Shown in pieces: positions 4,979 through 36,811 of a stretch of 64,000 bases of DNA. The stretch lies in IMG/VR virus record IMGVR_UViG_3300043399_000700; one strand, written 5' to 3'. The stretch's first letter is position 1. Each line of letters opens with the position of its first letter. The stretch is from a virus (Duplodnaviria > Heunggongvirae > Uroviricota > Caudoviricetes). The position numbers were made by a program, and so were the translations under genes. The notes below the pieces were generated by a model. It was not told where the DNA came from, made no database searches, and worked only from the letters and a program-made list of their open reading frames with translations.

Positions 4979-7900
4979 ATGGCACTAGTTTCCCCAGGCG
5001 TACAGGTATCGATCATCGATGAATCAAATTACCTACCAGCCCCAATTAATTCAGTTCCGTTTATTTTATTAGCCACAGCACAAAATAAAGTAAGCGGTAG
5101 CGGTGTTGGCGTTGCAGCCGGCACTACCGCAGCTAACGCTAACAAGGTTTACTTAATCTCTAGTCAGCGCGATCTTGCTGCAACCTATGGTAATCCATTT
5201 TTCTATAAGACCTCTGCAGGTCAACCAATCAACGGTTACGAACTCAACGAGTACGGCTTACTTGCTGCTTACTCAGTTTTAGGTATTAGCAACCGTGCTT
5301 ATATTCAACGTGTAGACATTGATCTTGCTGAACTAGTCGGTAGTTTAACTCGCCCAACTGGAGAACCAAACAATGCCACATACTGGTTAGATACAGCCTC
5401 GACCGAGTGGGGCATTTTTGAATGGAGCTACACAACTAATGCATTTGCACTAAAAACTCCATTGGTTATTACTAGCTCAGACGATTTAAGTTCTGGAGTA
5501 CCTTTAGCATCTATCGGCAACATTGGTGATTATGCTGTTGTTACTGTTGGCTCAACTGCTGGTTCAGTTACAAGTAACCCAGTGTACTTTAAGTCTCCTG
5601 GTTTAACTGTGCCTGTAGTTGGCGGCACTCAAGAAATTGTTCCTGCTAACACTTGGGTTTTAGTAGGTAGCGACGAATGGAAGTTATCGTGGCCAACTGT
5701 AATTGGCACTGAGACTAATCCTGCATTTGTAGCCGGCAATAATTTCAACATTAATAAAGTATTGATTACTATTCCTGCTGACACTAGTGTTGAGGGTCTT
5801 GCCACCGAAATTAACGATGGTTTCCACTCAGACTTACCTGGTGTTTATGCTAATGTTGTTAATGGCAAACTAAACATTTATGCTAATAGTTTAGCATCGA
5901 ATGATGGTTCAACTGCTGACGGTAACGGCATTGTTGACTTAGAAGTTGGCAACACCGGTACTCCGTTAACTACAGCAGGTATCGTGCCTAATCTATATTA
6001 TGCTCCAGTTGTTCAACAAAGTCCAAACTATCAAGTTCCACAGTGGCGTTCGACTAGCCCACAACCACATCCAACCGGTTCTGTTTGGAATAAGACAACC
6101 AATGTTAACAACGGTGCAAACCTAGTTGTTAAGAAATACAGTTCAACACTAGGTTCGTGGATTACACAAAACTGCCAAATTTATGCTAACGATGCTTCTG
6201 CAAACAAAGCACTAGATCCAGCAGGCGGTGGCCGCAACATTGCAGCCGGTTCAACTTACGCACAGTATGATATAAATCAGGATAACACATTCACTTTACA
6301 ATTATTTGAGCGTGTTGCTTCTGGTCCAACAATTGTTACCGGCGATAACTCGAACCCATCATTTACCAATGGTAATCAATTTACAATCTCTTGGAGTGTT
6401 AAGAACTCTAACACAATGACCACACCAGTTACTGCTACACTTACTGGCACAACTGCTGCTGATTTTGCTGCTGCATGGTCTGCTGCTGTTGGTCCTAATA
6501 GCATTGTTACTTGTGCAGTTACAAGCACAGGTGCAATTCAAATTCAACACACTCAAGGTGGTGTAATTTATCTAGCAAACGTCGGGGTTGACACAGCACT
6601 ATTAGATGCAGGATTAAACAACACAGTTGTTGGCATTCGTGACGGCATTGGCGGTGAACTAGTTGTATCAGACTGGGTACTATTTGATTACACACCATCT
6701 GCTGCATCACCAGACCAAGATCCACAAGACGGTCGCAACTGGTATTATAGTGCAGTTGATCAAGTTGATATTATGATCAACAATGGCACTAGCTGGGTTG
6801 GCTACCAAACACTAAGCAGTGATGTTCGTGGTTTCAACTTAACACAAACTGACCCTGCTGGTCCGATTGTTAGCTCAGTGACACCAACTAAACAAAGTGA
6901 TGGTACAGATTTAGTTTACGGCGATCTATGGATTGATACTAGCGATTTAGAAGTTTATCCAGTTATCAAACGCTGGGAAAGCATTGCTGGTCAAGATCAG
7001 TGGGTGTTAATCGACAACGGCGATCGTACAACAGAAAACGGTATCTTGTTTGCTGATGCACGTTGGGCGCCAAACGGTGACACAGATCCTATTATGGATC
7101 CAATTCCAACAATTACCAGTTTACTAGTTAGCAGCTACTTAGATTTAGATGCTCCTGATTCAGCACTATATCCAGCTGGTACATTGTTATTCAACACACG
7201 CCGCAGCGGATACAATGTTAAGAGCTTCCAAGTTAACTACTTCAATGCAACTGACTTCCCAGATCAGTCATTGCCTACTGTAACTAACACATGGGTTAGC
7301 GTTTCTGGTTACATGGACAACGGTGCTCCATTTATGGGTCGCAAAGCAGTTCGTTCAATGGTAGTTGCTGCAATGAAGGCAGGCATTGATGCAAATCAAG
7401 AACTACGTGAAGAACAACGTCAGTTTAATCTAATTGCTGCACCAAATTACCCAGAACTAATGCCTAACATGGTTGCTCTAAATAACGAGCGCAATGATAC
7501 AGCATTTGTGGTTGGTGACTCGCCAATGCGTTTACCAGACACTGATACAGCTATTATTGTTTGGGGTACTAACGCATCAGGCGAAGGTAACGACAACGAA
7601 GATGGTCTAGTAACACATGACCCATACCTAGGTGTTTTCTATCCAAGTTGCCAAACAACCGATCTAAGTGGTTCAACAGTAGTACAACCACCGAGCCACA
7701 TGATGTTACGTACAATCATCCGTAACGACGAAGTGGCATTCCCATGGTTAGCACCAGCCGGTACACGCCGTGGTATTGTTGACAACGCATTCCAGTTAGG
7801 TTATGTAAATGGTCAAACTGGTGCTTTCGTACCGACAGCAGTACGTCAAGGTCTACGTGACACATTATACGAAAACCAAATCAACCCAATTACATATCTA

Positions 7901-8302
7901 CCAGGCGCTGGTATTGTTAACTACGGTAACAAGACTACTGCTGCTACAACAAGTGCAATGGATCGCATTAACGTAGCACGTTTAATCGCTTACTTACGTG
8001 GTCGACTACAAGCAATTGGTGCAAACTATGTATTTGAACCAAACGATCAGATTACACGTGATCAGATCACCAACGCTGTTTCTGGATTACTAAATGATCT
8101 AGTTACCAAGCGCGGTATTTACGACTACCTAGTAGTTTGTGATTTAAGCAACAACACCCCAGAGCGCATTGATGCTAATGAACTATGGGTCGATATTGCT
8201 ATCGAACCAGTCAAGGCTGTAGAATTCATCTACATTCCAGTTCGTATCAAGAACACTGGCGAGATTGCAGCAGGTCAAGTTGCTACAGCAGCTACAGTTT
8301 AA
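4979..8302 (+). CDS. Contractile tail sheath protein (T4 gp18 family, enlarged to 1107 aa)
   Basis: N-terminus MALVSPGVQV matches gp18 MTLLSPGIEL. The C-terminal block DRINVARLIAYLRG...YDYLVVCDLSNNTPERIDANE matches the gp18 C-terminal DRINVRRLFNML...YEYRVVCDTTNNTPSVIDRNE. Confidence 0.9.
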   Translation: MALVSPGVQVSIIDESNYLPAPINSVPFILLATAQNKVSGSGVGVAAGTTAANANKVYLISSQRDLAATYGNPFFYKTSAGQPINGYELNEYGLLAAYSVLGISNRAYIQRVDIDLAELVGSLTRPTGEPNNATYWLDTASTEWGIFEWSYTTNAFALKTPLVITSSDDLSSGVPLASIGNIGDYAVVTVGSTAGSVTSNPVYFKSPGLTVPVVGGTQEIVPANTWVLVGSDEWKLSWPTVIGTETNPAFVAGNNFNINKVLITIPADTSVEGLATEINDGFHSDLPGVYANVVNGKLNIYANSLASNDGSTADGNGIVDLEVGNTGTPLTTAGIVPNLYYAPVVQQSPNYQVPQWRSTSPQPHPTGSVWNKTTNVNNGANLVVKKYSSTLGSWITQNCQIYANDASANKALDPAGGGRNIAAGSTYAQYDINQDNTFTLQLFERVASGPTIVTGDNSNPSFTNGNQFTISWSVKNSNTMTTPVTATLTGTTAADFAAAWSAAVGPNSIVTCAVTSTGAIQIQHTQGGVIYLANVGVDTALLDAGLNNTVVGIRDGIGGELVVSDWVLFDYTPSAASPDQDPQDGRNWYYSAVDQVDIMINNGTSWVGYQTLSSDVRGFNLTQTDPAGPIVSSVTPTKQSDGTDLVYGDLWIDTSDLEVYPVIKRWESIAGQDQWVLIDNGDRTTENGILFADARWAPNGDTDPIMDPIPTITSLLVSSYLDLDAPDSALYPAGTLLFNTRRSGYNVKSFQVNYFNATDFPDQSLPTVTNTWVSVSGYMDNGAPFMGRKAVRSMVVAAMKAGIDANQELREEQRQFNLIAAPNYPELMPNMVALNNERNDTAFVVGDSPMRLPDTDTAIIVWGTNASGEGNDNEDGLVTHDPYLGVFYPSCQTTDLSGSTVVQPPSHMMLRTIIRNDEVAFPWLAPAGTRRGIVDNAFQLGYVNGQTGAFVPTAVRQGLRDTLYENQINPITYLPGAGIVNYGNKTTAATTSAMDRINVARLIAYLRGRLQAIGANYVFEPNDQITRDQITNAVSGLLNDLVTKRGIYDYLVVCDLSNNTPERIDANELWVDIAIEPVKAVEFIYIPVRIKNTGEIAAGQVATAATV

Positions 8303-12140: not shown

Positions 12141-15086
12141 ATGAACAACATGTACAAAATTTTAGAATCGTTTAACAGCCTAACACCAGAGACAAAAGTA
12201 GTCGAGGCTAAAACCACAGATCCTGAACTACAAAAAATCGCACACAACTATCCTCGCGAAGTTAAGTTACTAATTCAAACTGGCGATTTTGACAAGGATC
12301 TATATTCAGCATTGTTTGATTACTACAACGGCCTAGGTGAAATGCCTTATGGCGTTGCCAAAGCACGTGACGGCGATCCTTATGAATGGATCTTCCAACG
12401 CTTTACCAACGACATGGGCCTAGATAGTCCACTAAGCAATGTTGGTCAAGATGCTGGCCTAGGTTTAGACAAGGCTATCCAAGGTGTTGAAGAAGAAATG
12501 GGCACATACGGTGCTATGGCCGGTCAAGGCATGGGCTATGGTAGCATTACCGAAGGCTCGGCAGACTTTTATCGAGAGTTGCGTGACCTTGTTGAAGGCA
12601 AAAAGTCAAAGCCTGACTTTTTAGACGTCGACAAAGATGGCAACAAAAAAGAGCCTTTCAAGAAGGCAGTCAAGGACAAGCAAGTTGACGAATCCTTGAC
12701 TAGTGTTGAATTAGACGAAGGTGTTAATAGATTTACACCAAAAGATATTAAATCTGCAATTAATTATAAAAATGCTGCTGGTCCAATTTGGAAAGTAACG
12801 CCAAGTGGGTCAGTCAGAATCACCGCAATGAATGCAGATGTTACTGCGCTCAATAAGATTTTATCTCGTCCATTAGCAAGTCAAGAAGACTGGGATATGT
12901 TAAAAAAGCAAATGCGAGTAGAGATTTTGAAAAAAAATGCAGGAAGCGCAATTGCTGAAGCCAAGCCTGACTTCCTAGACGTTGACAAGGATGGCAACAA
13001 GAAAGAGCCTTTCAAGAAGGCTATTAAGGATAAAAAAGTTAATGAAATGGATTATGGTGGCGGCAGAAGTCCGCACGGCGGCCACAATCTTCCAAGAGAC
13101 GCAGAAGATCAACCTGGACCACAGGTTACAGTAAATCCACAAAAAGCAAAAGATGCTAAAAAAGATATAGAGGATCAATTAACTAAAGCGTTTCAAAATC
13201 AACCAGTAAAGCAAAATGTTGGAGGCAAAAAAGTCAGCGAAGCAGCCGCCGAGAACCCATACCAACAACGTATCCTTGATGCTAATAAAGCAGACTTAGA
13301 AGAATTCTTAAAGACTGGTTACCTAGATACAACTAGTGACTTGTACTATCAAATGTACGAATACTATGCTAACCAAATGGATCCAAAAGTTCGTCGTAAT
13401 CAAGATGCACAGTATGATTTTATCACTGGTAAGATCCGCGAAATTGCTGGCGTTAACGAAGCCCGCGGCGATGATTGGGATTTCAGCGACTTACCACCAG
13501 AGCCAACAACACGTAAGATTGCTGGCAAGCGTTACGGCGGTTCAGCACAAGTTGATGAACCAGAAGATGACGAAGATGATAGCAAGCCAGGTGTTAAGGC
13601 TGCTAAAAAGCGTGGTCGCCCAGCAGGCACCAAACGTGCTATTGGTGCCAAAGGCCCAACAGGCAAGAGCAAACTTCTTAAGAAGGGTGCTATCAAAGAG
13701 GGCGACGACGAAGGCGTTGACATGGTTAAGTTAGCCAAGGTTATTGCTTCGTGCACAAGCCCTGAGCAACTTGAAGTTGCTAAGAAGATGGCTAAAAACT
13801 TTTTAGGCAAGCACCGTGCATCGGGTGACGATTTTAGAGTTAGTGCATTTAAAAACGACATGGATCGTGAAAGATCAGTAAAGCGTGATCTTGGTGCTAA
13901 AGCCAAGAGCCTAAGTGCAGAACCAGTTGCTGAAAAGGCCCCCCCTGGCGCCAAAGCAGAACGTATGGTCAAGGGTATTAAGAAGTCATTGAGCAAAGAC
14001 GGTCACCTAAGTGACAAGGACAAAGCAATTGCTTATGCTACCACATGGAAAGCACACAAGCAAGGCAAAGTTGAAGAAGAAGCCGGTGTTGAAGAAGAAT
14101 CAACAGGCGACGAATCTAAAGAATCACGCCAAGCAGCAAAAAGTATCTATCACATGCTTTATGATGCTAACGCCGCTGACTGGAAAGATCTAGGTTACAC
14201 CCCAGTGGATGTTAGAAATTTAACTAAAGTAGCAGAGATGTTTAAAGTTGGTAAGCCCAAAGCAGCACGTCAACTAGCATTCAAAGCTGGCATTAGCGAT
14301 TTAGTTGACGAAATACTCAAAGGCAACTGGGTCGGTGCAGAGTTAGAAGAAGAATCAACAGGCGACTACTCTGCTAAAAAGGCACGTGCCGGTAAAGACA
14401 TTGGCAAGCCAGGCAAGAACTTTGAAAAGATTGCTAAGTCAGCAGGTAAAAAGTATGGCAGCAAAGAACGTGGTGAAAAGGTTGCTGGTGCAGTATTAGC
14501 AAAACTACGTGGCAAGAACGAAAGCAAGGACGAAGAACAAGTTGAAGAAACAACTTGTGCCGGTTCAGTTGCTCCAAGTGTTGCTGCTCCTAAGAAAGCA
14601 AGTGCTGGTGGTTATCAGTTTGGCAAGGGTGTTTACGAAAGCATTAACAGCCAAGTAGAAAAAATGATTGTCGAGGGCATGAGCATCAATGTAAACGTCG
14701 ACAGCAATGGTCAAAAGAGCATTAACGTTAGTGCTACTGATGAAGATGCTGACAAGCTAGCAGAAATTTTAAAGATGGCTGGTATTGCTGGCGGCGGTGT
14801 TCCTGCAGTACAGGAAGCACAATGTTGCGAAGCATGTGGCACAAACCCATGCGAATGTTCAATGGTTGAAGAATCAAATGAACTAGCCAACGGCCCAGAC
14901 GAAGAATACGCAGACACAGACATGCTAACAAACAAACTAGCCGGTGGTTTAAACAAACCTAAGACAACCGTTGCAGGTAATGGTCAAACTACTGTTCCTG
15001 TTACTGCTGTTCAAGTTAAGGAAAGCCAAGAAGTTGCAAAGATCGAAAACAGTCTTTGGAACTTGTTTAAAGCATTTAAGAAGTAA
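12141..15086 (+). CDS. Large Lys/Glu-rich protein with internal repeats (possible internal virion or ejection protein)
   Basis: 981 aa. Near-identical 28-aa repeats KPDFLDVDKDGNKKEPFKKA(V/I)KDK at about 12607 and 12964 (DxDxDG Ca-binding-like motif). Two EEESTGD repeats and a Cys-rich C-terminus. Confidence 0.6.
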   Translation: MNNMYKILESFNSLTPETKVVEAKTTDPELQKIAHNYPREVKLLIQTGDFDKDLYSALFDYYNGLGEMPYGVAKARDGDPYEWIFQRFTNDMGLDSPLSNVGQDAGLGLDKAIQGVEEEMGTYGAMAGQGMGYGSITEGSADFYRELRDLVEGKKSKPDFLDVDKDGNKKEPFKKAVKDKQVDESLTSVELDEGVNRFTPKDIKSAINYKNAAGPIWKVTPSGSVRITAMNADVTALNKILSRPLASQEDWDMLKKQMRVEILKKNAGSAIAEAKPDFLDVDKDGNKKEPFKKAIKDKKVNEMDYGGGRSPHGGHNLPRDAEDQPGPQVTVNPQKAKDAKKDIEDQLTKAFQNQPVKQNVGGKKVSEAAAENPYQQRILDANKADLEEFLKTGYLDTTSDLYYQMYEYYANQMDPKVRRNQDAQYDFITGKIREIAGVNEARGDDWDFSDLPPEPTTRKIAGKRYGGSAQVDEPEDDEDDSKPGVKAAKKRGRPAGTKRAIGAKGPTGKSKLLKKGAIKEGDDEGVDMVKLAKVIASCTSPEQLEVAKKMAKNFLGKHRASGDDFRVSAFKNDMDRERSVKRDLGAKAKSLSAEPVAEKAPPGAKAERMVKGIKKSLSKDGHLSDKDKAIAYATTWKAHKQGKVEEEAGVEEESTGDESKESRQAAKSIYHMLYDANAADWKDLGYTPVDVRNLTKVAEMFKVGKPKAARQLAFKAGISDLVDEILKGNWVGAELEEESTGDYSAKKARAGKDIGKPGKNFEKIAKSAGKKYGSKERGEKVAGAVLAKLRGKNESKDEEQVEETTCAGSVAPSVAAPKKASAGGYQFGKGVYESINSQVEKMIVEGMSINVNVDSNGQKSINVSATDEDADKLAEILKMAGIAGGGVPAVQEAQCCEACGTNPCECSMVEESNELANGPDEEYADTDMLTNKLAGGLNKPKTTVAGNGQTTVPVTAVQVKESQEVAKIENSLWNLFKAFKK

Positions 15087-15088
15087 TA

Positions 15089-15463
15089 ATGCGAGCAGCG
15101 GAGTTCATCACTGAGGCCAGCGAAGCCAAGGTATCTAAGAGATACCAGCAAGCAACTCGCGGTCTTAACTGGTTCAGTGATGGTGAACGCTGGAACACTG
15201 ACTACGTTGGGTATCGTTTGGGAATGGCAGTGGCCTGCGCCGACGGTGTTAACCCCATTGAAATGGACGCCAAGAGTTGGATAGGCAAAGGTAAAACAGC
15301 ACATCCTTATACTAAGGAAGAGCAGGCTATGCTTAAACAAGCATACGAAGTCGCCGGCGCATCTTATAAAGATCTAAACCATGGTGACATGGACAGTGAA
15401 GAACTTAAATCGACTAACAATGTTAGTCCAGTAAAACCGTTCAAAGGTTACCGACGTCGATGA
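15089..15463 (+). CDS. Small protein, paralog A of a tandem pair
   Basis: Starts MRAAEFI and ends SPVKPFKGYRRR. Paralogous to the next ORF. Confidence 0.55.
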   Translation: MRAAEFITEASEAKVSKRYQQATRGLNWFSDGERWNTDYVGYRLGMAVACADGVNPIEMDAKSWIGKGKTAHPYTKEEQAMLKQAYEVAGASYKDLNHGDMDSEELKSTNNVSPVKPFKGYRRR

Positions 15464-15846
15464 GAGCACGTGAGTTTATTGTAGAACAAAAAGATCTAGA
15501 TCCAGAATACAAGGATCCTATGCAATGGACTTTTACTATTCCTGGATTATCGGCAGCAGATCCTTATAACAATTATCGATTTGGTGTGGCTATTGCTCGA
15601 GCACGTAGCGATCAAGCCACAGATGATGTTAATAATTTTCGCCCAGACTGGTCTCCAGAAACAGCATTTGGCGAACACGGTGTAGTTGTTGGAATGAACT
15701 CTGGTATTGAAAAAGTAATCGACCAGGCACTTAAAATGACCAACACACCTGGCGGCAAAAAACTAGTATCGAGTCCTAAAAGCGAAGAACCGTCGTTTGT
15801 TACATCAACAAGCCCAGTAAAACCGTTCAAAGGTTACCCACGTTAA
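15460..15846 (+). CDS. Small protein, paralog B of a tandem pair
   Basis: Starts MRAREFI and ends SPVKPFKGYPR. ATGA overlap with paralog A. Confidence 0.55.
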   Translation: MRAREFIVEQKDLDPEYKDPMQWTFTIPGLSAADPYNNYRFGVAIARARSDQATDDVNNFRPDWSPETAFGEHGVVVGMNSGIEKVIDQALKMTNTPGGKKLVSSPKSEEPSFVTSTSPVKPFKGYPR

Positions 15847-15875
15847 CAAAATAACGTACAGCCATAAATATTATT

Positions 15876-16127
15876 ATGGCACTACCACCTACCCCTTCTG
15901 GATACGATAACTGGAATCAGTATATTACTGATAATGCTCCTGCCCTTATGGCAAGCCAAGGACTAACATTTCAGCAAGCCAAAGCAAGTATTAAGTTACT
16001 TGATGTAGCAATGCCTATTAGACAAGATGTTGGTACTCCAAGTTATAGAATTTACAACGAATTTACTACCTGGGCAGATAGAACAGTTGCTCCAACTCTT
16101 GGACGCCCTTGGAAATCTGAATCATAA
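15876..16127 (+). CDS. Hypothetical protein
   Basis: 83-aa ORF with a TAATG overlap with the following tail-fibre-like gene. Confidence 0.45.
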   Translation: MALPPTPSGYDNWNQYITDNAPALMASQGLTFQQAKASIKLLDVAMPIRQDVGTPSYRIYNEFTTWADRTVAPTLGRPWKSES

Positions 16128-17131
16128 TGCCTACTCCTCCACCATGGCTTGATATTACTGGCATTAGCCGGGCAGCAATGAAGGACAATGCCCAGGTTAA
16201 TGCAGCGCAGTATGATGGCAACGCTCGTCCAGCAGAATTAGTAGTAGAACAAAACACACTACAACTATATGTCGGCGACAACAACGGAAATTTAGTATTG
16301 TTAGCCACACCTGCAGGTGCACCGGCTAATGTTGCTGTTTACGACGAAGGCAACCTATTAACCAGCACAGTCACAAGTTTTAATTTTGTTGGCGATGGTG
16401 TAACTGCCACTGCCGGACTTGACAATGCAGTTACCGTTACCGTTCCATCAACTATTTCTCAGTTATACAACGGTGCTTATTATGCCGATGGTACAACTAC
16501 ACTAACTGCTGGCATTAACTCAAACAGCACCACACCTATTGCAGTAGCATCAACTGCGCCATTTGCTAACAGTGGCTATATTAGAATTGGTGCCGAAGTT
16601 ATTCGTTATACCGGTAAGACAGCCACAACATTCACAGGCATTACACGTGGGCAAGCAGGATCAAATGGATCAACACACAATACTGGTGCTGGCGTTGGTG
16701 CTGCACAAGTTGTTGCTGTAGGCACATCTGCAACAGTTTTAATTGATACTGTTGTAATGCAAAACGGTATGTCGTTAAATACTGCCACAGGTGAGGTTAC
16801 ATTACAACATAGCGGTCGTTATAACTTTCAGTTTAGCGTACAAAGTGAATGTTACGGCAACGATGTTGACGACACAGTAGTATGGTTTGCACTAAATGGT
16901 AATACTATAAACAATACCGCAAGTTACAGCACAATACAAGGTACTCATGGCGGCCGTCCGGGTAGCAACATTATCACCGTTAATGTTTTCTTAGATTTAT
17001 CGGCCAACGATGTAATATCGCTAAAGTGGGCGTCACTAGGCGGCACTACTGCTATTACTACAATTCCCCCATCCAATAACATTATTCCAATATCACCTGG
17101 CGTAATTCTTACCGTTAATCGAGTTTACTAA
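16127..17131 (+). CDS. Tail fibre / receptor-binding-like protein
   Basis: Gly/Thr/Ala/Asn-rich with repetitive beta-strand-like segments (SGYIRIGAEVIRYTGKTATTFTGITRGQAGS). Confidence 0.45.
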   Translation: MPTPPPWLDITGISRAAMKDNAQVNAAQYDGNARPAELVVEQNTLQLYVGDNNGNLVLLATPAGAPANVAVYDEGNLLTSTVTSFNFVGDGVTATAGLDNAVTVTVPSTISQLYNGAYYADGTTTLTAGINSNSTTPIAVASTAPFANSGYIRIGAEVIRYTGKTATTFTGITRGQAGSNGSTHNTGAGVGAAQVVAVGTSATVLIDTVVMQNGMSLNTATGEVTLQHSGRYNFQFSVQSECYGNDVDDTVVWFALNGNTINNTASYSTIQGTHGGRPGSNIITVNVFLDLSANDVISLKWASLGGTTAITTIPPSNNIIPISPGVILTVNRVY

Positions 17132-17132
17132 A

Positions 17133-17567
17133 TTGAATCAACTTTTCTTAGCACTGGCGCTATTGCCATCAATGTCTTTTGCAGACAAAGCACCACAAGG
17201 TGTTGCATACCCTGCAGAAATTATTAAAGTTACTGATGGTGACACAGTGGTTATTGCTGCACCTTATTTGCCAGCACCACTAAAGCCACAATTGGCCGTT
17301 AGAATCTTCGGCGTTGATACACCCGAAAAAGGTTCTCGCGCTAAGTGCACAGCCGAAGATTCTAAAGGCCAAGCAGCATCAAAGTTTACTACTAAAGCAG
17401 TTAAACAATCAACTAAACAACAAGTTGTCATTTATGATTGGGATAAGTACGGTGGTCGTGTATTAGGTGATGTTATTTTAAATGGCCAAAGTCTACGAAC
17501 AATGTTAATTCAAAACGGATATGCCCGAGAATACTATGGTGAAGCTAAAAAATCTTGGTGTCAGTAA
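17133..17567 (+). CDS. Secreted staphylococcal-nuclease (thermonuclease, SNase) family nuclease with a signal peptide
   Basis: Signal peptide MNQLFLALALLPSMSFA. TDGDTVV...RIFGVDTPEKG, DKYGGRVLG and QNGYAREYY align with the SNase DGDT / RLLLVDTPE / DKYGRGLAYIY / RQGLAKVAY blocks. Confidence 0.75.
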   Translation: MNQLFLALALLPSMSFADKAPQGVAYPAEIIKVTDGDTVVIAAPYLPAPLKPQLAVRIFGVDTPEKGSRAKCTAEDSKGQAASKFTTKAVKQSTKQQVVIYDWDKYGGRVLGDVILNGQSLRTMLIQNGYAREYYGEAKKSWCQ

Positions 17568-18622
17568 TACCAAAACATATGAAGATATTAGTTTGTTCAA
17601 CTGCCGAAACACAGCACTGGAAGTATTTTTTAAATCATTTTGACATTGATTACCAGTTGATTGATTTATATGATGCAGATCAGCAGAGATTTTACTTGCC
17701 GATAACAGAGTCTGATACAATATTAATAACTGATTACATTATTCTTGACCAGTTGTATCGATATTCAAAAACAGATATTATAGAATACACCAAGCACAAT
17801 AAATTATTGATAGTTGCTAATGCTGATTCGCCTGTGCTTTTTTACAAAGACATAGACAAGTGGCAACAACTTGATACACTAGTTTCACATAACTCATTAT
17901 GGTTTGTGCTTGAATGTTCTTGTTTCTCCCACTCGTTAACAAATATACAAGTAGATTTTGATTCCGAGTCGAAATTTTTTGATATAATTGAACAACGTCT
18001 AAGTTTGAAAATTAACAAACAGTTAACCAAAGATTTTTTGCTTATGCTTGCCCGCGAAGATGCAACACGCACTTACTTGTGGGAGCAACTGCAATCAAGA
18101 AATTTAACATCCAATGCTGTTGCATTTTATCATAAAAATGCTGGAGGAAATCCTGATTTTGTTTTTAATGGCAACACCGGGCATCAATTTGTGTGGCAAA
18201 AAAGTTTAATTCCGTGCATTGATTTTTATAGTTCGTGTGCTTTTGAGATTGTTGCCGAAACAATAACTGATCGCGTTTGCTGGTTTACAGAAAAAACTAT
18301 CAGACCAATTGCTGGAAAAACGCCGTTTGTAACATTAGCTGCACCTGGTGCGCTCAACGAGTTACGCAAACTTGGGTTTAAGACATTTGGTAGTTATATT
18401 AATGAATCTTACGATCTGGAATTAGACGTTGTAAAACGCACTGATATGATTGTTAATGTTGTTGCAGATATTGTTAACAATGGCGCCATAGAGTTTGCTA
18501 AAGCAACGCAGAATATTACAGAACATAATTGGAATAGGCTCCTTGAGTTAAAAGGAGCCTATGCATATCACAAAGATTTAAAATTTTTCGACTTATTAAC
18601 TAAGCTGAACGCTTTGTATTAG
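17555..18622 (+). CDS. Hypothetical protein
   Basis: 355-aa ORF; start uncertain (alternative ATG at 17579). Confidence 0.45.
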   Translation: MVSVIPKHMKILVCSTAETQHWKYFLNHFDIDYQLIDLYDADQQRFYLPITESDTILITDYIILDQLYRYSKTDIIEYTKHNKLLIVANADSPVLFYKDIDKWQQLDTLVSHNSLWFVLECSCFSHSLTNIQVDFDSESKFFDIIEQRLSLKINKQLTKDFLLMLAREDATRTYLWEQLQSRNLTSNAVAFYHKNAGGNPDFVFNGNTGHQFVWQKSLIPCIDFYSSCAFEIVAETITDRVCWFTEKTIRPIAGKTPFVTLAAPGALNELRKLGFKTFGSYINESYDLELDVVKRTDMIVNVVADIVNNGAIEFAKATQNITEHNWNRLLELKGAYAYHKDLKFFDLLTKLNALY

Positions 18623-19151
18623 TTACTATCGGTTCGTTTTTCAAACCAAGATATGTTGCCCAACTTGGGTGACGAACATGTGTGAATGTATCTTTAATGC
18701 TATTTACTAAGTTCCAGTAACTCGGACGGAATGGTTCGTGAATTGGACGCCAATATTTGCTGCCTTTAGCAGAGTTACATGCCTTGCAAGCACTCACACA
18801 GTTTTCCCAAGAAGTACGGCCACCATCGCTACGTGGAACAACGTGGTCCACAGTTAGTTGTTTTGGCTCAAACGTTTCGCCGCAGTACTGACATTGGTAC
18901 AAGTCACGTAAAAACAAATGCTGACGACTAAATCGTGCATGTTTGCCTTTACCGAAGCCTTTCTTTGTTACAGCCACAGCGGGTACTCGCATACTAATGC
19001 TTGAACTGTGTACGACCCAATCGTCGTGCCATTCAATAACTTGGATGCGATCTAAGAAAAATAGTTTAATAGCAGTTTGCCAGTCGATTGTCGATAACGG
19101 TAAAAAGTTTACTGGTTGATAATCTGGCGCTAAAATTAATGTGTCGCTCAT
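18600..19151 (-). CDS. HNH endonuclease
   Basis: CQYCGETFEPKQLTVDHVVPRSDGGRTSWENCVSACKACNSAKG is a canonical HNH/Zn-finger motif. Antisense, directly upstream of the terminase gene. Confidence 0.8.
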   Translation of the reverse strand: MSDTLILAPDYQPVNFLPLSTIDWQTAIKLFFLDRIQVIEWHDDWVVHSSSISMRVPAVAVTKKGFGKGKHARFSRQHLFLRDLYQCQYCGETFEPKQLTVDHVVPRSDGGRTSWENCVSACKACNSAKGSKYWRPIHEPFRPSYWNLVNSIKDTFTHVRHPSWATYLGLKNEPIVTNTKRSA

Positions 19152-19189
19152 TTTAGATATTTATTGTGAGTTAACGGCTAAGTAAATGT

Positions 19190-20761
19190 ATGTCAAAATC
19201 ACTTGAAGGCGTTTTAATTAAACAACCGCACCGTTCGTTTCACTACACGGACGAGCAAATACAAGAATTTGCTTTGTGTGCGGATCCTGTTACCGGTCCA
19301 CGATATTTCATGGACAATTTCTTTTATATACAGCATCCTCTTAGAGGCAAGATGCAGTACCATCCCTATGAATTTCAGGATAGGCTAATAGAAACATATC
19401 ATAATTATAGATTCTCTATAAGCATGATGCCAAGACAAACGGGCAAATCTACATCGGCTGCTGGGTACTTACTTTGGTATGGAATGTTTGTACCCGATTC
19501 GACTATTTTGGTTGCGGCACACAAATATTTAGGTGCACAGGAAATTATGCAGCGTATTCGTTATGCTTATGAAGCATGCCCGGACCATATTCGAGCAGGT
19601 GTTGTAAGTTATAACAAAGGATCAATTGATTTCGACAACGGGTCACGTATTGTTAGCCAAACAACCACAGAAAATACCGGCCGGGGTATGTCTATTTCAC
19701 TATTATACTGTGACGAGTTTGCGTTTGTGCGTCCGAACATTGCCACAGAATTTTGGACATCAATTACGCCTACACTAGCAACTGGTGGTAAGGCAATTAT
19801 TACATCCACTCCTAACTCCGACGAAGACCAATTTGCATTAATTTGGAAAAGTGCGTTAAAGTGTGAAGATGAATTTGGTAATCCAACTGAGGTTGGAGTC
19901 AATGGATTTAAAGCATATCGTAGTTTTTGGAAAGAGCACCCAGACCGCGATGAACAATGGGCAACACAGCAACGTGCTATTCTGGGTGAAGAACGTTTTC
20001 GTCGAGAAATGGACTGCGAGTTCATTATTAACGACGAAACACTGATTGCTCCTACTAAACTTATTGACTTATTTCCAACTGAACCACTATACAAAACAGG
20101 ACAAGTGCGTTGGTTTAAAAGGCCAGAGCCTAACAAGTTCTACACAGTTGCTCTAGACCCGAGTTTGGGCACTGGCGGTGACGCTGCTGCTATACAAGTA
20201 TTTGAAGCCAACACCACAATTCAAGTTGCAGAATGGCGTCATAACCGTACTACCATTCCCGAGCAGATCCGCATCCTTGCTGATATTTGCCGACATATCA
20301 ACGACACGGTTAAAGATTCAAAGAGCATTTACTATTCCGTGGAAAACAATACAATTGGCGAAGCAGCACTGATTTCTATTGCTGAATACGGTGAAGAAAA
20401 TATCCAAGGATATTTTTTAAGTGACAACTCAGTAGTTAGTTCCGGCGGCAAACGATATCGTAAGGGATTTAACACTACAAACAAGTCTAAACTTGCTGCG
20501 TGTGCTAAACTTAAAAATCTAATCGAAACTAATCGTATGCAGATTAACAGTCAAAGTTTAATCTCGGAACTCAAGGGCTTCGTAGCAATGGGTACAAGTT
20601 ATGCTGCCAAACCCGGCGAAACTGACGATTTAGTAATGGCCACAGTACTAACAGTTCGTATGCTACAAATACTACAAACTTACCACCAAGAATTAGATAG
20701 CCAAATCAAAGATCACAATGATATTACAATCGAGCCAATGCCGTTTGTAGCAATATTCTAA
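19190..20761 (+). CDS. Terminase large subunit (gp17-like)
   Basis: Walker A-like MMPRQTGKSTSAAGY and Walker B LLYCDEF. 523 aa with a C-terminal nuclease-sized domain. Confidence 0.75.
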   Translation: MSKSLEGVLIKQPHRSFHYTDEQIQEFALCADPVTGPRYFMDNFFYIQHPLRGKMQYHPYEFQDRLIETYHNYRFSISMMPRQTGKSTSAAGYLLWYGMFVPDSTILVAAHKYLGAQEIMQRIRYAYEACPDHIRAGVVSYNKGSIDFDNGSRIVSQTTTENTGRGMSISLLYCDEFAFVRPNIATEFWTSITPTLATGGKAIITSTPNSDEDQFALIWKSALKCEDEFGNPTEVGVNGFKAYRSFWKEHPDRDEQWATQQRAILGEERFRREMDCEFIINDETLIAPTKLIDLFPTEPLYKTGQVRWFKRPEPNKFYTVALDPSLGTGGDAAAIQVFEANTTIQVAEWRHNRTTIPEQIRILADICRHINDTVKDSKSIYYSVENNTIGEAALISIAEYGEENIQGYFLSDNSVVSSGGKRYRKGFNTTNKSKLAACAKLKNLIETNRMQINSQSLISELKGFVAMGTSYAAKPGETDDLVMATVLTVRMLQILQTYHQELDSQIKDHNDITIEPMPFVAIF

Positions 20762-20774
20762 TAAATACTATACT

Positions 20775-22097
20775 ATGAGCACAAATAACAACGACGCACA
20801 ACAACTATATGACCTACTGGTTGCCAAAGATTTTGAGCCAGAAACCCTAGATAAAACAGGTAAGCCTACTACAGATCCTGGCTCGTCTGATATCTTTAGT
20901 TTTGACTATAAAACTGCGAACCAGGACTATGGTACTGTTGTTATCGTGCTTGACAACGAACAAAATCTTGAAGTTTACTTTGGCGACAACCTTGGCAAGA
21001 CCATGGAAGAAGCAGACCGCAAAGAATGGTATGACTTCTTGTACCAATTGCGTATGTTTGCCAAGCGCAATCTATTAACTTTTAGTCTAAATAATTTAGC
21101 ACGCCTAAAGTTTAACATGAAGACCATGGCTGCTCTTAAAGAAAGCCGTTTGTTCGAAGGCTATTACGGCACCCGTAAAACAAGTTACTCAGATCAACCT
21201 AAGAAAACCAAGATTGTTATCAAACACAACCGCCCACTGGGTGAAGGCGAAGCACGTTTCCGTCATATTGAGAGTGTGTTTGTTGAAACATCTGAAGGTG
21301 AACGTTTTAAACTACCATTTACCAAACTAGTTGGAGCCAAAGCAATGGCACGCCATGTAAGCGAAGGTGGCACACCATACGATGCTTTTGGCCAGCACAT
21401 TGCCGAAATGGTCAACGAAATGAATACTCTTAGCAGTTTCATTCGTGCTGCTAAACACAAGAACTACGACGGTGAGGCAGCGCACATGTTAGATTCGGCA
21501 GTACGCCATTATGCTGATCTAAAGCGTAAAGCCAAACACATGATTAGCCAACGCGGCTATCGTCAAACTCTAGATGAGTTTGATCCAGCAACAATTACGC
21601 CTGCCGACGAAGCAGTTGAAACCATTCGTAGTTTGTTTACACAACAAAGCCTCGATCCACGTATTGAAGGTGCACTACCTATTTTGGTTAAGATTCAAAA
21701 GACCGAACCCGCTGATGAATTTGAATCATGGGCCGAACGTGTAACCGAAGGTACCTGGGCATTACCTGACAACAAGGAAGCACAAGTTGAGTTAAACAGA
21801 TTAATGTCACAGCCTGTAGCAGTGGGTCCAGATGCAACCAACGCCACTGAATTGTTATATGATATTGTTGGCGATGACAAGTTATTTGATATCTTAGGTG
21901 CTCTTGCTGACCAAGATCCAGATGCTAATATTTGGGATAATGCAGCCGTTGTTAATCGATTAAAAGAACTAGGTATTGATACTAGCGTAATTACTAACCC
22001 ACAACAAGCTGAACCTAATCTAACCGAACCAAACGAACCTCCAGTTATGGAATCTGATGAGTTAGACTTTATACGCACTTTAGCAAATATTAAATGA
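20775..22097 (+). CDS. Hypothetical protein (possibly portal, by position after the terminase gene)
   Basis: 440-aa ORF immediately downstream of the terminase gene. No diagnostic motif recognised. Confidence 0.3.
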   Translation: MSTNNNDAQQLYDLLVAKDFEPETLDKTGKPTTDPGSSDIFSFDYKTANQDYGTVVIVLDNEQNLEVYFGDNLGKTMEEADRKEWYDFLYQLRMFAKRNLLTFSLNNLARLKFNMKTMAALKESRLFEGYYGTRKTSYSDQPKKTKIVIKHNRPLGEGEARFRHIESVFVETSEGERFKLPFTKLVGAKAMARHVSEGGTPYDAFGQHIAEMVNEMNTLSSFIRAAKHKNYDGEAAHMLDSAVRHYADLKRKAKHMISQRGYRQTLDEFDPATITPADEAVETIRSLFTQQSLDPRIEGALPILVKIQKTEPADEFESWAERVTEGTWALPDNKEAQVELNRLMSQPVAVGPDATNATELLYDIVGDDKLFDILGALADQDPDANIWDNAAVVNRLKELGIDTSVITNPQQAEPNLTEPNEPPVMESDELDFIRTLANIK

Positions 22098-34492: not shown

Positions 34493-34846
34493 ATGGCTGG
34501 TTACGCATTAATTCGCCGAATCAAACACCTAGAAGAACAGTTGGATAAACTGGGTATGCGCTGGGGTGCTAACAAATACGGTATGACAGGCTATGACAAT
34601 GGCGACACACTAACAGTTATTCCCAAGGAAGGTTGCTTGCCGCATTTCGCTCGCGATGCTGAACTGTTTACAGGCACCATTGAGGGCTTGCAACTTTGGC
34701 TACAAGGTATTGATTGGGCCCGGCGTTACGACATTATTCTGGGTTTGCAAACAGAACAACGCCGCGCCCGTGCCGAGCAAAACGAGCACAACAAGCAACT
34801 AATGAAACATCTTAAGGATGAAAAAATAGAGGTAATCAATGATTAG
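34493..34846 (+). CDS. Hypothetical protein
   Basis: 117-aa ORF with a TAATG overlap. Confidence 0.45.
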   Translation: MAGYALIRRIKHLEEQLDKLGMRWGANKYGMTGYDNGDTLTVIPKEGCLPHFARDAELFTGTIEGLQLWLQGIDWARRYDIILGLQTEQRRARAEQNEHNKQLMKHLKDEKIEVIND

Positions 34847-35015
34847 AATTATTCTAGCATTCTTGTTTGTATTTGGTTTGTTTTACTTTGGTATTGATGC
34901 GTTCCGTCATTTGACTGGACGTGAAAAGTGGGATCTAACCAAACTAATCGGTTATAGTTTAATCTGTGCTGTGCTAACTGTAGTTGCCCTTGCTGTTTTT
35001 GTTTACGCATTTTAA
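34839..35015 (+). CDS. Small two-transmembrane-segment protein (58 aa)
   Basis: MIRIILAFLFVFGLFYFGIDAF...LICAVLTVVALAVFVYAF. Not in the ORF track. Confidence 0.4.
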   Translation: MIRIILAFLFVFGLFYFGIDAFRHLTGREKWDLTKLIGYSLICAVLTVVALAVFVYAF

Positions 35016-35024
35016 AGGAAAATC

Positions 35025-35828
35025 ATGAAAAAGAATATCGCTCTTACCCTTGTTGCCGCTGCTGTACTGGCCACAGGCTGTACTCGTATTGAAACTGGTA
35101 CTGTTGGCCTGCGTGTTGATATGAGCAAGCAGGTTCAGCAACAAGAACTTCAAGCAGGTACTTGGAATCAAACTATTGTTGGTGATGTGCTAGTATTCCC
35201 AGTACGCAGCATTCAAGTCGCTTGGAACAACTTGACTCCGCAGACTGCTGATAACTCTACGCTCAAAGACTTTGACGTAGCAATGGTCTATGACATCAAT
35301 CCAACCTCTGTATCGGATATTTGGACTAACCAAAGCCGTAGTTTCCATACTTACGATACCAAGCACAGCGATTGGTACTTGATGCACAACTATATGAGCC
35401 AACTGCTCAACTCAGCAACTGTCAAGGCTGTGCGTAAGTACAATGCTCTAAGCGTAGCAGACAACCGTGGCAACATCGAAGTCGATGTCAAGTCGTTTGT
35501 TGACCAAATGCTTAAAGAAGAAAACTTGGACAAGGCTATTACTGTAAGCCAAGTTCGTGTTGCTAACGCCACACCAGCAGATGATATTGTTGCTGCTGCT
35601 AATGCTGCTGTTCGTGCACAAAGCGATCTAAAGACCAAACAAGTCGAAGTTGAAATCGCCAAGCAAGAAGCACAGCGTATCCAAACGCTAAACGCAAACT
35701 CGCAGGCTATTCCGTATATGCAAGCAATGGCTAATATGGAAATTGCCAAAGCAGTTCGCGAAGGCAAGGTCACTACTATTGTCATTCCAGCAGACTTCAA
35801 GGGTATGCTTAACGTAGGCAAACAGTAA
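35025..35828 (+). CDS. Lipoprotein, possibly SPFH/band-7-like
   Basis: Signal peptide plus lipobox LATGC. The Ala/Gln-rich helical C-terminal region (QVEVEIAKQEAQRIQTLNAN) is reminiscent of SPFH proteins. Confidence 0.4.
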   Translation: MKKNIALTLVAAAVLATGCTRIETGTVGLRVDMSKQVQQQELQAGTWNQTIVGDVLVFPVRSIQVAWNNLTPQTADNSTLKDFDVAMVYDINPTSVSDIWTNQSRSFHTYDTKHSDWYLMHNYMSQLLNSATVKAVRKYNALSVADNRGNIEVDVKSFVDQMLKEENLDKAITVSQVRVANATPADDIVAAANAAVRAQSDLKTKQVEVEIAKQEAQRIQTLNANSQAIPYMQAMANMEIAKAVREGKVTTIVIPADFKGMLNVGKQ

Positions 35829-36303: not shown

Positions 36304-36545
36304 TGAACGAACGAATTAAAGAAATCGCCAAACAGGCTAGACTAATCTATCTGTATGACTATGATGCAGATGGACATGCAATGGTTTGCAGTGAGAAAGA
36401 TATCAAAAAGTTCGCCGAGTTGATTGTTCGGGAATGTGCTGACTTTGTAAGTAGCAAAGCAGGTCTTCAAAGTGGTTTAGGTATCAAGACCATGCTCAAA
36501 GTTACAGGCGAACAGCTAAAAGAACACTTCGGAGTTGAAGAATGA
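36300..36545 (+). CDS. MNERIKE-family small protein, tandem paralog 3
   Basis: MMNERIKEIAKQARL...KFAELIVRECADFV...HFGVEE. Confidence 0.5.
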   Translation: MMNERIKEIAKQARLIYLYDYDADGHAMVCSEKDIKKFAELIVRECADFVSSKAGLQSGLGIKTMLKVTGEQLKEHFGVEE

Positions 36546-36811
36546 AACAGCGTGGATTTACCTTAATCGAAGCAGTAGTCATTATATGCATTATAATGAT
36601 CCTGGCTGCGGTTGCTGTGCCTGTGTTCACAGGTAAAATGAGTACTGCTGGTATCACATATGGTGTTAATGGTGTAACCGAAAGCCGCTGCATTGAAGGC
36701 TACAAGTTTGTTATCGGATCAGATGGTAATGCTCGTCAGATTCTAAATGAACTGGGCAAAGGTGTGCGCTGTGATACTGTTATTAACGAACCCTCAATGA
36801 GTAGACCATAA
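36542..36811 (+). CDS. Type IV prepilin/pseudopilin-like protein
   Basis: MKQRG|FTLIEAVVIICIIMILAAVAVPVF is a class-III prepilin leader with the G/F cleavage site, Glu+5 and a hydrophobic alpha1 helix. A C-terminal Cys pair (RCIEG...GVRC) fits the pilin D-region. Confidence 0.65.
   Translation: MKQRGFTLIEAVVIICIIMILAAVAVPVFTGKMSTAGITYGVNGVTESRCIEGYKFVIGSDGNARQILNELGKGVRCDTVINEPSMSRP

Follow-up and report, generated by a model that had tools for sequence, protein, structure and literature searches.

A staphylococcal nuclease-family gene with a conserved Sec-type leader in a tailed-phage genome

The nuclease gene and its product

The window examined here (64,000 nucleotides of a Caudoviricetes virus, IMG/VR record IMGVR_UViG_3300043399_000700) carries on its plus strand a complete gene for the precursor of a staphylococcal nuclease (SNase)-family nuclease, whose features are listed in Table 1. 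The start codon is TTG, one base past the TAA of a 334-residue gene before it, and the same TTG is used in the JGI annotation of a 99%-identical protein (P0001, which begins LNQLF). Translational coupling to the upstream gene is likely, because no Shine-Dalgarno sequence is visible at the TAAATTG junction.

An earlier note, drawn from the sequence, had described the product as an SNase homologue, and the searches made here agree. The protein matches Pfam PF00565 (SNase; E 7.5e-13, score 49.3 bits, gathering cut-off 21) and PHROG 452, 'endonuclease' (E 1.3e-18); a sequence search of the PDB matched 274 staphylococcal nuclease chains (best E 3.6e-6), and BLASTP aligned 112 residues with wild-type SNase at 33% identity. 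An AlphaFold model built from 30 homologues (alignment A2) has a mean predicted local distance difference test (pLDDT) score of 87.9, and all 50 of its best PDB matches in Foldseek are SNase, with template-modelling (TM) scores of 0.60-0.72 and root-mean-square deviations (rmsd) of 2.3-3.5 Å, one nuclear magnetic resonance model excepted; for SNase crystal structures the values are TM 0.64-0.70 and rmsd 2.4-3 Å. The product belongs to the staphylococcal nuclease / thermonuclease family (PF00565, COG1525). The gene is an ordinary, already auto-annotated member of this known family, and many close relatives, the 99%-identical protein included, carry the JGI label 'endonuclease YncB (thermonuclease family)'. 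It is under purifying selection: the ratio of non-synonymous to synonymous substitution rates (dN/dS) over the whole gene is 0.07-0.14, with 0.07 against the 96%-identical copy at locus L006.

Two narrower identities were rejected. The scores against the NCBIfam equivalogs thermonuclease NucI (NF047694; 40 bits, cut-off 250) and calcium-activated nuclease EcnA (NF047969; 36.7 bits, cut-off 180) fall far under the cut-offs, and the protein is a relative of both and a member of neither; a literature search on EcnA returned nothing relevant. Membership of a defence system was also rejected, the PADLOC match being weak and generic (SNc+LTD domain, E 1.9e-6).

Residue equivalences were taken from HMMER and BLASTP alignments to SNase, and invariance was scored in an alignment (A1) of 27 sequences that includes the homologues of a Rhizobium phage (44% identity) and a Sulfurimonas phage (29%). 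The DGDT...R...VDTPE and C-terminal DKYG/QNGYA blocks that the earlier note pointed out do align with SNase (as DGDT, R57, VDTPE, DKYGGR and QNGYAREYY), DGDT spanning D35-T38, the counterparts of SNase D19-T22. D37, R57, D62, T63, E65, K105 and R109 are invariant in the 27 sequences; Y106 and Y135 are not. The catalytic arginines and glutamate (R57, R109 and E65) are thus all retained. Within the nucleotide-binding set K105, Y106 and Y135 (in QNGYAREYY, equivalent to SNase Y113) are present, Y106 often being F in close relatives, and there is no equivalent of Y115. Judged from these alignments, the active site is intact, with every catalytic and Ca2+-site residue kept.

The protein departs from SNase in three places. 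The C-terminal helix 3 is absent. Between strands 2 and 3 lies a proline-rich insert, six residues longer than the corresponding SNase stretch, that is nearly invariant and specific to the family: P44, L46, P47, P49, L50 and P52 are invariant in A2, and divergent representatives carry related (F/W)(L/V)PxPL motifs there. Finally, there are two cysteines, of which C72 is invariant in 27/27 sequences, those of the Rhizobium and Sulfurimonas phages included, and the two-cysteine pattern recurs in 94 of the 99 full-length divergent representatives of the wider subfamily (clustered at 50% identity). A C72-C143 disulfide probably pins the short C-terminal tail, and the paired invariant cysteines suggest a working life outside the cytoplasm.

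The leader was surveyed in the 110 top database hits carrying a PQG anchor motif. In the window its hydrophobic core (residues 3-12, LFLALALLP; Kyte-Doolittle values up to 2.64) is followed by S-F-A/D, an AxA-type site (the slash marks the cut). A 17-residue leader is kept in 96 of the 110 homologues, with the consensus MKKLLLxLLxxPxLAFA/QK and AFA/QK and ALA/QK as the commonest cut sites, and 100 have two K/R residues at the N-terminus. The N-terminus is leader-like in 90 of the 99 divergent representatives, and the shape of the leader is retained in these representatives and in 80 IMG/VR loci even where its sequence is unrelated. Over the 17 leader codons the window differs from L006 by six synonymous changes and one non-synonymous change; L006 keeps the TTG start, and the internal ATG (M14, codon 14) is TTG there. 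The leader is thus translated and constrained, since the changes are mostly synonymous and it is the TTG start, not the internal ATG, that both copies share. In the AlphaFold model it forms a low-confidence N-terminal helix detached from the domain, and with no cysteine in residues 1-71 there is no lipobox, so the protein is not a signal peptidase II precursor. These alignments and codon comparisons show a conserved, selected Sec-type leader on the nuclease, as the earlier note had proposed; export and the position of the cleavage site are predicted from it.

Table 1. Features of the nuclease gene in the window
Feature	Coordinates	Strand	Basis
Complete coding sequence of the SNase-family nuclease precursor, 144 residues and TAA stop	17133..17567	+	ORF (open reading frame) list, Pfam, PDB, Foldseek, dN/dS
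Stop-start junction TAAATTG: TAA of the upstream gene, then TTG of the nuclease	17129..17135	+	sequence; same junction and TTG in L006
Signal peptide of Sec type (residues 1-17, MNQLFLALALLPSMSFA); signal peptidase I is predicted to cut between S-F-A and D18	17133..17183	+	hydrophobicity, homologues, codon changes
Mature nuclease domain (predicted), residues 18-144: 127 residues, 13.9 kDa, pI 9.2; OB-fold SNase core	17184..17564	+	alignments, AlphaFold, Foldseek
D37 = SNase D21, Ca2+ ligand, inside DGDT	17241..17243	+	alignments; invariant in A1 and A2
Proline-rich insert A43-P-Y-L-P-A-P-L-K-P-Q53, between strands 2 and 3	17259..17291	+	gap in SNase alignments
R57 = SNase R35, catalytic, phosphate-binding	17301..17303	+	alignments; invariant in A1
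DTPE: D62 = D40 and T63 = T41 (Ca2+ ligands), E65 = E43 (general base)	17316..17327	+	alignments; invariant in A1
C72, first invariant cysteine, after DTPE; putative disulfide partner of C143	17346..17348	+	27/27 aligned sequences
K105-Y106-G-G-R109 = SNase K84, Y85 (substrate binding) and R87 (catalysis); one-residue insertion	17445..17459	+	alignments
C143, C-terminal W-C motif; putative disulfide partner of C72	17559..17561	+	alignments; tail pLDDT 84-89

Distribution, carrier phage and gene neighbourhoods

The family is large. At least 7907 sequences in the protein database match at E <= 1e-5, and the best 120 of these are nearly all of 143-145 residues and 68-99% identical; among 1.84 billion representatives searched, 4069 clusters match at E <= 1e-3, and IMG/VR holds at least 533 loci. 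Among GenBank phages there are only 12 records: ten of Rhizobium phages, one of a Sulfurimonas phage and one of an uncultured phage from a Florida spring. The clade of the window (68-99% identical, thousands of sequences) is known from freshwater metagenomes only, and relatives derive from planktonic freshwater metagenomes, lake metagenome-assembled genomes and a spring. Close relatives in cellular genomes are confined to freshwater metagenome-assembled genomes of mixed phyla, most likely mis-binned phage contigs; genuinely bacterial relatives (Pontibacter, Desulfobacterales) are about 30-36% identical, and plasmid thermonuclease genes 28-37% identical, to the query.

The window also encodes a tail sheath, a tail tube protein, a T4-type large terminase (TerL), a gp32-like single-stranded DNA-binding protein, UvsX-like and DnaB-like proteins, helicases and a class I ribonucleotide reductase. 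This gene content, and the 100% identity between the 347-residue protein encoded downstream of the nuclease and one on a JGI contig of 192,074 bp, indicate that the window derives from a large myovirus, probably of about 190 kb; related nuclease genes sit on viral contigs of 140-340 kb. Megablast of positions 15000-21000 against GenBank phages found no match, and the phage thus has no close cultured relative there at the DNA level. There are no tRNA genes in the window; the T4 late-promoter motif TATAAATA has two matches against 5.1 expected, none of them near the nuclease gene, and scans for generic sigma-70 promoters and terminators gave chance-level results.

For the survey of neighbourhoods, ORFs were called in 84 loci, and the three neighbours on each side of the nuclease gene were clustered and labelled with Pfam. 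The position of the gene is not conserved: at least five unrelated settings were seen. In ten loci, 200-kb T4-like contigs among them, it lies between DNA polymerase B and UvsX, with DnaB following. In a second setting NrdB, an Fe-S protein, a glycosyltransferase or a small secreted protein precedes it and a SegE-like GIY-YIG homing endonuclease (PF19835, E 2.5e-31) follows, directly in 16 loci and within two genes in 18 (L009, L012, L017, L018, L022, L024, L026, L031-L034, L039, L044, L046, L047, L049, L061 and L087); such an adjoining gene may contribute to the spread or upkeep of the nuclease gene by co-conversion. In the setting of the window the order is a pair of small 'MRAxEF' genes, sometimes a 334-residue fibre-like gene, the nuclease, one or two variable genes (HNH or radical SAM) and TerL; TerL is at most three genes downstream in eight loci, and HNH genes are near the nuclease in seven related loci.

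Elsewhere the neighbours include genes of lysis type and of nucleotide metabolism. A GH19 lysozyme-type gene stands beside the nuclease in ten loci, and in MW202675 the nuclease comes directly before 'chitinase A'. A lipoprotein gene follows directly in four loci and is at most three genes downstream in six; its product, of about 135 residues with a clear lipobox, is encoded at +1 in L011, L053, L077 and L088, +2 in L028 and +3 in L042, and in L011 and L088 a GH19 gene lies two genes past it. A protein of about 155 residues with its own signal peptide is encoded directly upstream (-1) in L022, L032, L038, L039, L044, L046 and L087. These flanking exported proteins could form a small envelope- or lysis-related cluster. 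NrdB is near the nuclease in 11 loci and NrdA in four; L009 has NrdB, thioredoxin and ThyX upstream and PhoH two genes downstream. In the Rhizobium phages the nuclease comes directly after ribonucleotide reductase, and in the Sulfurimonas phage after a DNA polymerase. A conserved two-gene module with the downstream gene was considered and rejected, because the 355/347-residue neighbour is unlike the 350-residue neighbour in L007 and because the neighbours differ between lineages. The behaviour of the nuclease gene is that of a single-gene cassette, with homing endonuclease genes as frequent neighbours.

The gene directly upstream (16127..17131, plus strand) is the tail-fibre-like gene after which the earlier note had placed the nuclease. 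The adjacency is correct, whereas the likeness to fibres is modest: PHROG tail fibre, baseplate and virion matches have E 1e-7 to 3e-11, with residues 83-224 resembling large virion, baseplate and tail-fibre proteins, a C-terminal C1q-like match is sub-threshold (E 3.3e-4), and no PDB sequence match was found. The adjacency itself means little, since the position of the nuclease gene varies between lineages, and a fibre-like gene lies upstream in only four of the 84 loci.

Directly after the nuclease, the 347-residue product of gene 17579-18622 (plus strand) has no Pfam, PHROG, NCBIfam or PDB sequence match. Its model (pLDDT 93) shows a weak GT-B glycosyltransferase likeness (E 1e-4 to 1e-3, TM 0.35-0.40), the structural matches being exostosin-like 3, GtfC/Gtf3 and an alpha-1,3-fucosyltransferase; a T-E-K motif (T237-K239) is invariant and F236 nearly so. 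On the model it is probably a divergent glycosyltransferase. Between it and the large terminase lies a gene for an HNH endonuclease (18600-19151, minus strand; PF01844, E 2.5e-18), probably a free-standing homing endonuclease; at its 3' end this gene shares 23 bases with the convergent one.

Before the fibre-like gene, two paralogous small proteins (15089-15463 and 15460-15846, plus strand) begin MRAAEFITE and MRAREFIVE and end ..SPVKPFKGY(R/P)R; Pfam has no match for them. They are also found in L006, L020, L023, L040, L048, L073, L075, L085 and L089, and in related phages an MRAxEF[IL]xE N-terminus is shared by several unrelated proteins, the GH19 lysozyme-domain proteins of L036 and L037 among them. 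We take this N-terminus to resemble the T4 internal-protein capsid-targeting sequence (..EFIAE, cut by prohead protease); if the likeness holds, the MRAxEF proteins would be head-packaged and injected. Between them and the tail genes, a highly charged 981-residue protein (12141-15086, plus strand) with a duplicated KPDFLDVDKDGNKKEPFKKA(V/I)KDK motif has weak PHROG matches of unknown function. The tail sheath protein (4979-8302, plus strand; PHROG 10581, E 1e-206) is unusually long at 1107 residues, which suggests extra decoration domains.

An SPFH/Band 7 protein (35025-35828, plus strand; PF01145, E 1.8e-14) with a lipoprotein-like leader (..VLATGC) is preceded by a small hydrophobic 58-residue membrane protein (34839-35015), and an 89-residue protein (36542-36811, plus strand) that starts MKQRGFTLIEAVV, a prepilin-type N-terminal methylation motif (PF07963, E 6.6e-6), is by that motif a predicted phage-encoded type IV pilin or pseudopilin-like protein. 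The beta-helix protein at 58328-59902 (plus strand), to which the earlier note had drawn attention, is indeed present: it is pectate-lyase-like (PF12708, E 1.3e-21), with a weakly Mtd_N-like N-terminus and tail-spike PHROG matches near 1e-8, and its gene adjoins the ribonucleotide reductase genes, outside the tail module.

Possible roles of the nuclease

The product is very probably an exported nuclease of the SNase type, non-specific and, by homology, Ca2+-dependent, with a probable disulfide. The precursor would leave the cytoplasm through Sec, for the periplasm if the host is two-membraned, as the lipoprotein neighbours in related phages suggest, and otherwise for the medium. With the 17-residue leader removed, the 127-residue basic domain would fold, the probable C72-C143 disulfide standing in for the missing C-terminal helix, in a space that would supply both Ca2+ and oxidising conditions. 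DNA and RNA would be cut by the SNase mechanism, with Ca2+ held by D37, D62 and T63, water activated by E65 and the phosphate stabilised by R57 and R109, presumably leaving products with 3'-phosphates. Export would keep a nuclease specific for neither sugar nor sequence off the replicating and unpackaged DNA of the phage, and because it removes the enzyme from the cytoplasm the substrates should be extracytoplasmic: DNA from the environment, that of other phages or elements reaching the envelope and, once the cell has lysed, host and unpackaged DNA.

Among the possible gains to the phage we put salvage of extracytoplasmic nucleic acid at the top, since genes of nucleotide metabolism recur beside the nuclease in independent lineages, followed by breakdown of competitor phage DNA, post-lysis clean-up and, last, biofilm penetration. 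Salvaged nucleic acid would be recycled to nucleotides, nucleosides and phosphate for phage DNA synthesis, a proposal prompted by the frequent neighbours ribonucleotide reductase, ThyX, PhoH and DNA polymerase; nucleotide scavenging, which the earlier note had offered as its alternative, fits this recurrent neighbourhood better than the biofilm story does. Salvage as the main pay-off is a tentative choice. For the explanation as a whole, a soluble exported Ca2+-dependent non-specific nuclease with salvage as its likeliest pay-off, our confidence is moderate and only just tips in its favour.

Several points weigh against this explanation. The leader of the window starts M-N-Q, with no K/R and hence no positively charged n-region, and with this leader and a TTG start export may be less efficient in this phage. 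The neighbourhoods are heterogeneous and so do not single out salvage: lysis-type genes (GH19 in ten loci, lipoproteins at +1), terminase-proximal genes and SegE (18 loci) are as frequent as nucleotide-metabolism genes. The 3'-nucleotide products of SNase need additional phosphatases in the periplasm before they can cross the inner membrane, and no exported phosphatase partner was found beside the nuclease, the neighbouring metallophosphoesterases of nine loci having no leader. Our literature searches found no enzymatic, localisation or expression data on any family member.

The exported nuclease might instead destroy the DNA of superinfecting phages or incoming elements in the envelope, as host endonuclease I does; we regard this as unlikely. 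Anderson and Eigner are said to have reported in 1971 that the periplasmic endonuclease I of E. coli degrades excluded superinfecting T-even DNA. The leader and cysteines point to the same location for the phage enzyme, and about ten T4-like loci have the nuclease within their replication module (polB-NUC-UvsX, NUC being the nuclease). The T4 replication module is expressed early, when exclusion functions act. Superinfecting-phage DNA in the periplasm is part of T4 biology (PMC8385771), and exported DNases encoded by prophages and integrative and conjugative elements (ICEs) are documented to destroy incoming DNA (PMC12378983). However, analogues of the exclusion genes imm or sp were not recognised beside the nuclease, the gene in the window lies among structural and packaging genes rather than early ones, and the PADLOC match to the SNc domain is generic; moreover the ejection channel shields DNA in normal transit, so that an extra blocking factor would be needed.

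A role at lysis is improbable. Here an envelope-held nuclease would digest viscous host and unpackaged phage DNA and so free the capsid-protected progeny to diffuse, in keeping with the GH19 neighbours in ten loci, the 'chitinase A' of MW202675, the downstream lipoproteins, the linkage to late-type genes in the window and the second hypothesis of a review, in which lysis activates phage DNases (PMC9145820). An enzyme freed by lysis, however, has no need of a signal peptide, and export would then serve self-protection only; low-density planktonic hosts give little DNA entanglement, and many loci have no lysis genes nearby.

The earlier note preferred to see the nuclease and the beta-helix protein as a pair, digesting the extracellular DNA (eDNA) and polysaccharide of a biofilm matrix on the way to the host, perhaps while borne on the particle, and this we consider very unlikely. 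The nuclease does appear intact, with an export leader, and the beta-helix protein is pectate-lyase-like. Some of the exported-DNase genes of Campylobacter jejuni RM1221 are prophage-borne. These DNases remove biofilms (PMC4372405), but a 2022 review reports no phage that actively pursues eDNA degradation (PMC9145820), and the relatives of the present nuclease come from lake and spring plankton. The nuclease and beta-helix genes are 41 kb apart, were never found together in the neighbourhood survey and have nothing to connect them, and the fibre-like neighbour is confined to four of 84 loci. Incorporation into virions is itself unlikely, because Sec export separates the protein from virion assembly in the cytoplasm; the nuclease is a stand-alone 144-residue protein with a Sec leader, neither fused to a structural protein nor in conserved linkage with structural genes, and it lacks a capsid-targeting N-terminus.

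Full activity of SNase takes about 10 mM Ca2+, a high concentration that the cytoplasm lacks, and this counts against action there. That the hydrophobic N-terminus is no working export signal, and that the enzyme degrades the host chromosome in the cytoplasm to feed phage DNA synthesis, is hardly credible: phage thermonuclease genes are generally assumed to be host-DNA degraders (PMC11981692), replication and ribonucleotide reductase genes often adjoin the nuclease and the leader in the window lacks a positive n-region, but the leader shape and AxA site are kept over thousands of sequences with the leader under purifying selection, the paired invariant cysteines fit an oxidising compartment, and a non-specific nuclease in the cytoplasm would cut phage DNA too.

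Phage 'thermonuclease' genes are usually read as cytoplasmic, whereas the conserved leader and cysteine pair, in thousands of phage sequences, point outside the cytoplasm. Such a location shifts the plausible roles to environmental DNA turnover and phosphorus recycling in lakes, phage-phage competition and clean-up at lysis, and it makes the protein a compact secreted nuclease scaffold, of 14 kDa and with a probable disulfide. More speculatively, and with rather low confidence, a very abundant clade of large freshwater myoviruses may place the nuclease in the host envelope as a superinfection-breakdown weapon or as a means of mining environmental DNA for nucleotides and phosphate in phosphorus-poor lakes; if true, either envelope role would be one that no virulent phage has yet been shown to play, and a literature search found nothing on exported SNase-type nucleases of virulent phages. 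The value of the observation is that of a testable lead, from a leader consistent across a very abundant phage clade, rather than of a discovery.

Comparison with known nucleases

Direct homologues, members of PHROG 452 / COG1525, are encoded by Rhizobium phages RHph_TM30 and RHph_Y65 (gp211), Sulfurimonas phage SNW-1 and the uncultured phage MW202675; at 29-54% identity these proteins have the same length, a leader-like N-terminus, the catalytic residues and the two cysteines.

Among plasmid-borne proteins, RP4 ParB was reportedly described by Grohmann et al. in 1997 as an SNase-family Ca2+-dependent nuclease on mobile DNA of Gram-negatives. It and the plasmid 'thermonuclease family' proteins are distant, with a role tied to plasmid maintenance. 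E. coli EndA, a periplasmic non-specific nuclease that degrades envelope-stranded phage DNA (the T-even 'superinfection breakdown'), is a functional analogy only, being host-encoded and of unrelated fold.

The DNases of the Campylobacter jejuni CJIE elements and of the Vibrio ICEs belong to other enzyme families (endonuclease I type or other). Mobile-element-borne nucleases acting in the periplasm or outside the cell have been reviewed, and Dns of the C. jejuni prophage CJIE1, the CJIE2/CJIE4 nucleases and IdeA/SxnA of Vibrio ICEs act there on exogenous DNA, the exported DNases of prophages and ICEs blocking transformation (PMC12378983); those of C. jejuni also remove eDNA biofilm (PMC4372405). 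The phage nuclease resembles these in being encoded by a mobile element and in its predicted extracytoplasmic action. They differ in that the CJIE and ICE enzymes sit on integrated elements and benefit a living lysogen by blocking its transformation, whereas the present carrier is a virulent-looking large myovirus.

The closest parallel in structure is the thermonuclease or micrococcal nuclease of Staphylococcus aureus (Nuc, SNase; PDB 1STN, 1EY0 and 1SND), with which the phage protein shares the OB-fold, the Ca2+ ligands and the catalytic Arg/Glu/Arg, and which is likewise made with a signal peptide and secreted. Unlike SNase, the phage protein has no propeptide, C-terminal helix 3 or Y115, and it has the six-residue-longer proline-rich loop (43-53) and two invariant cysteines where SNase has none; the carrier is a lytic-type myovirus here and a Gram-positive chromosome in the case of SNase.

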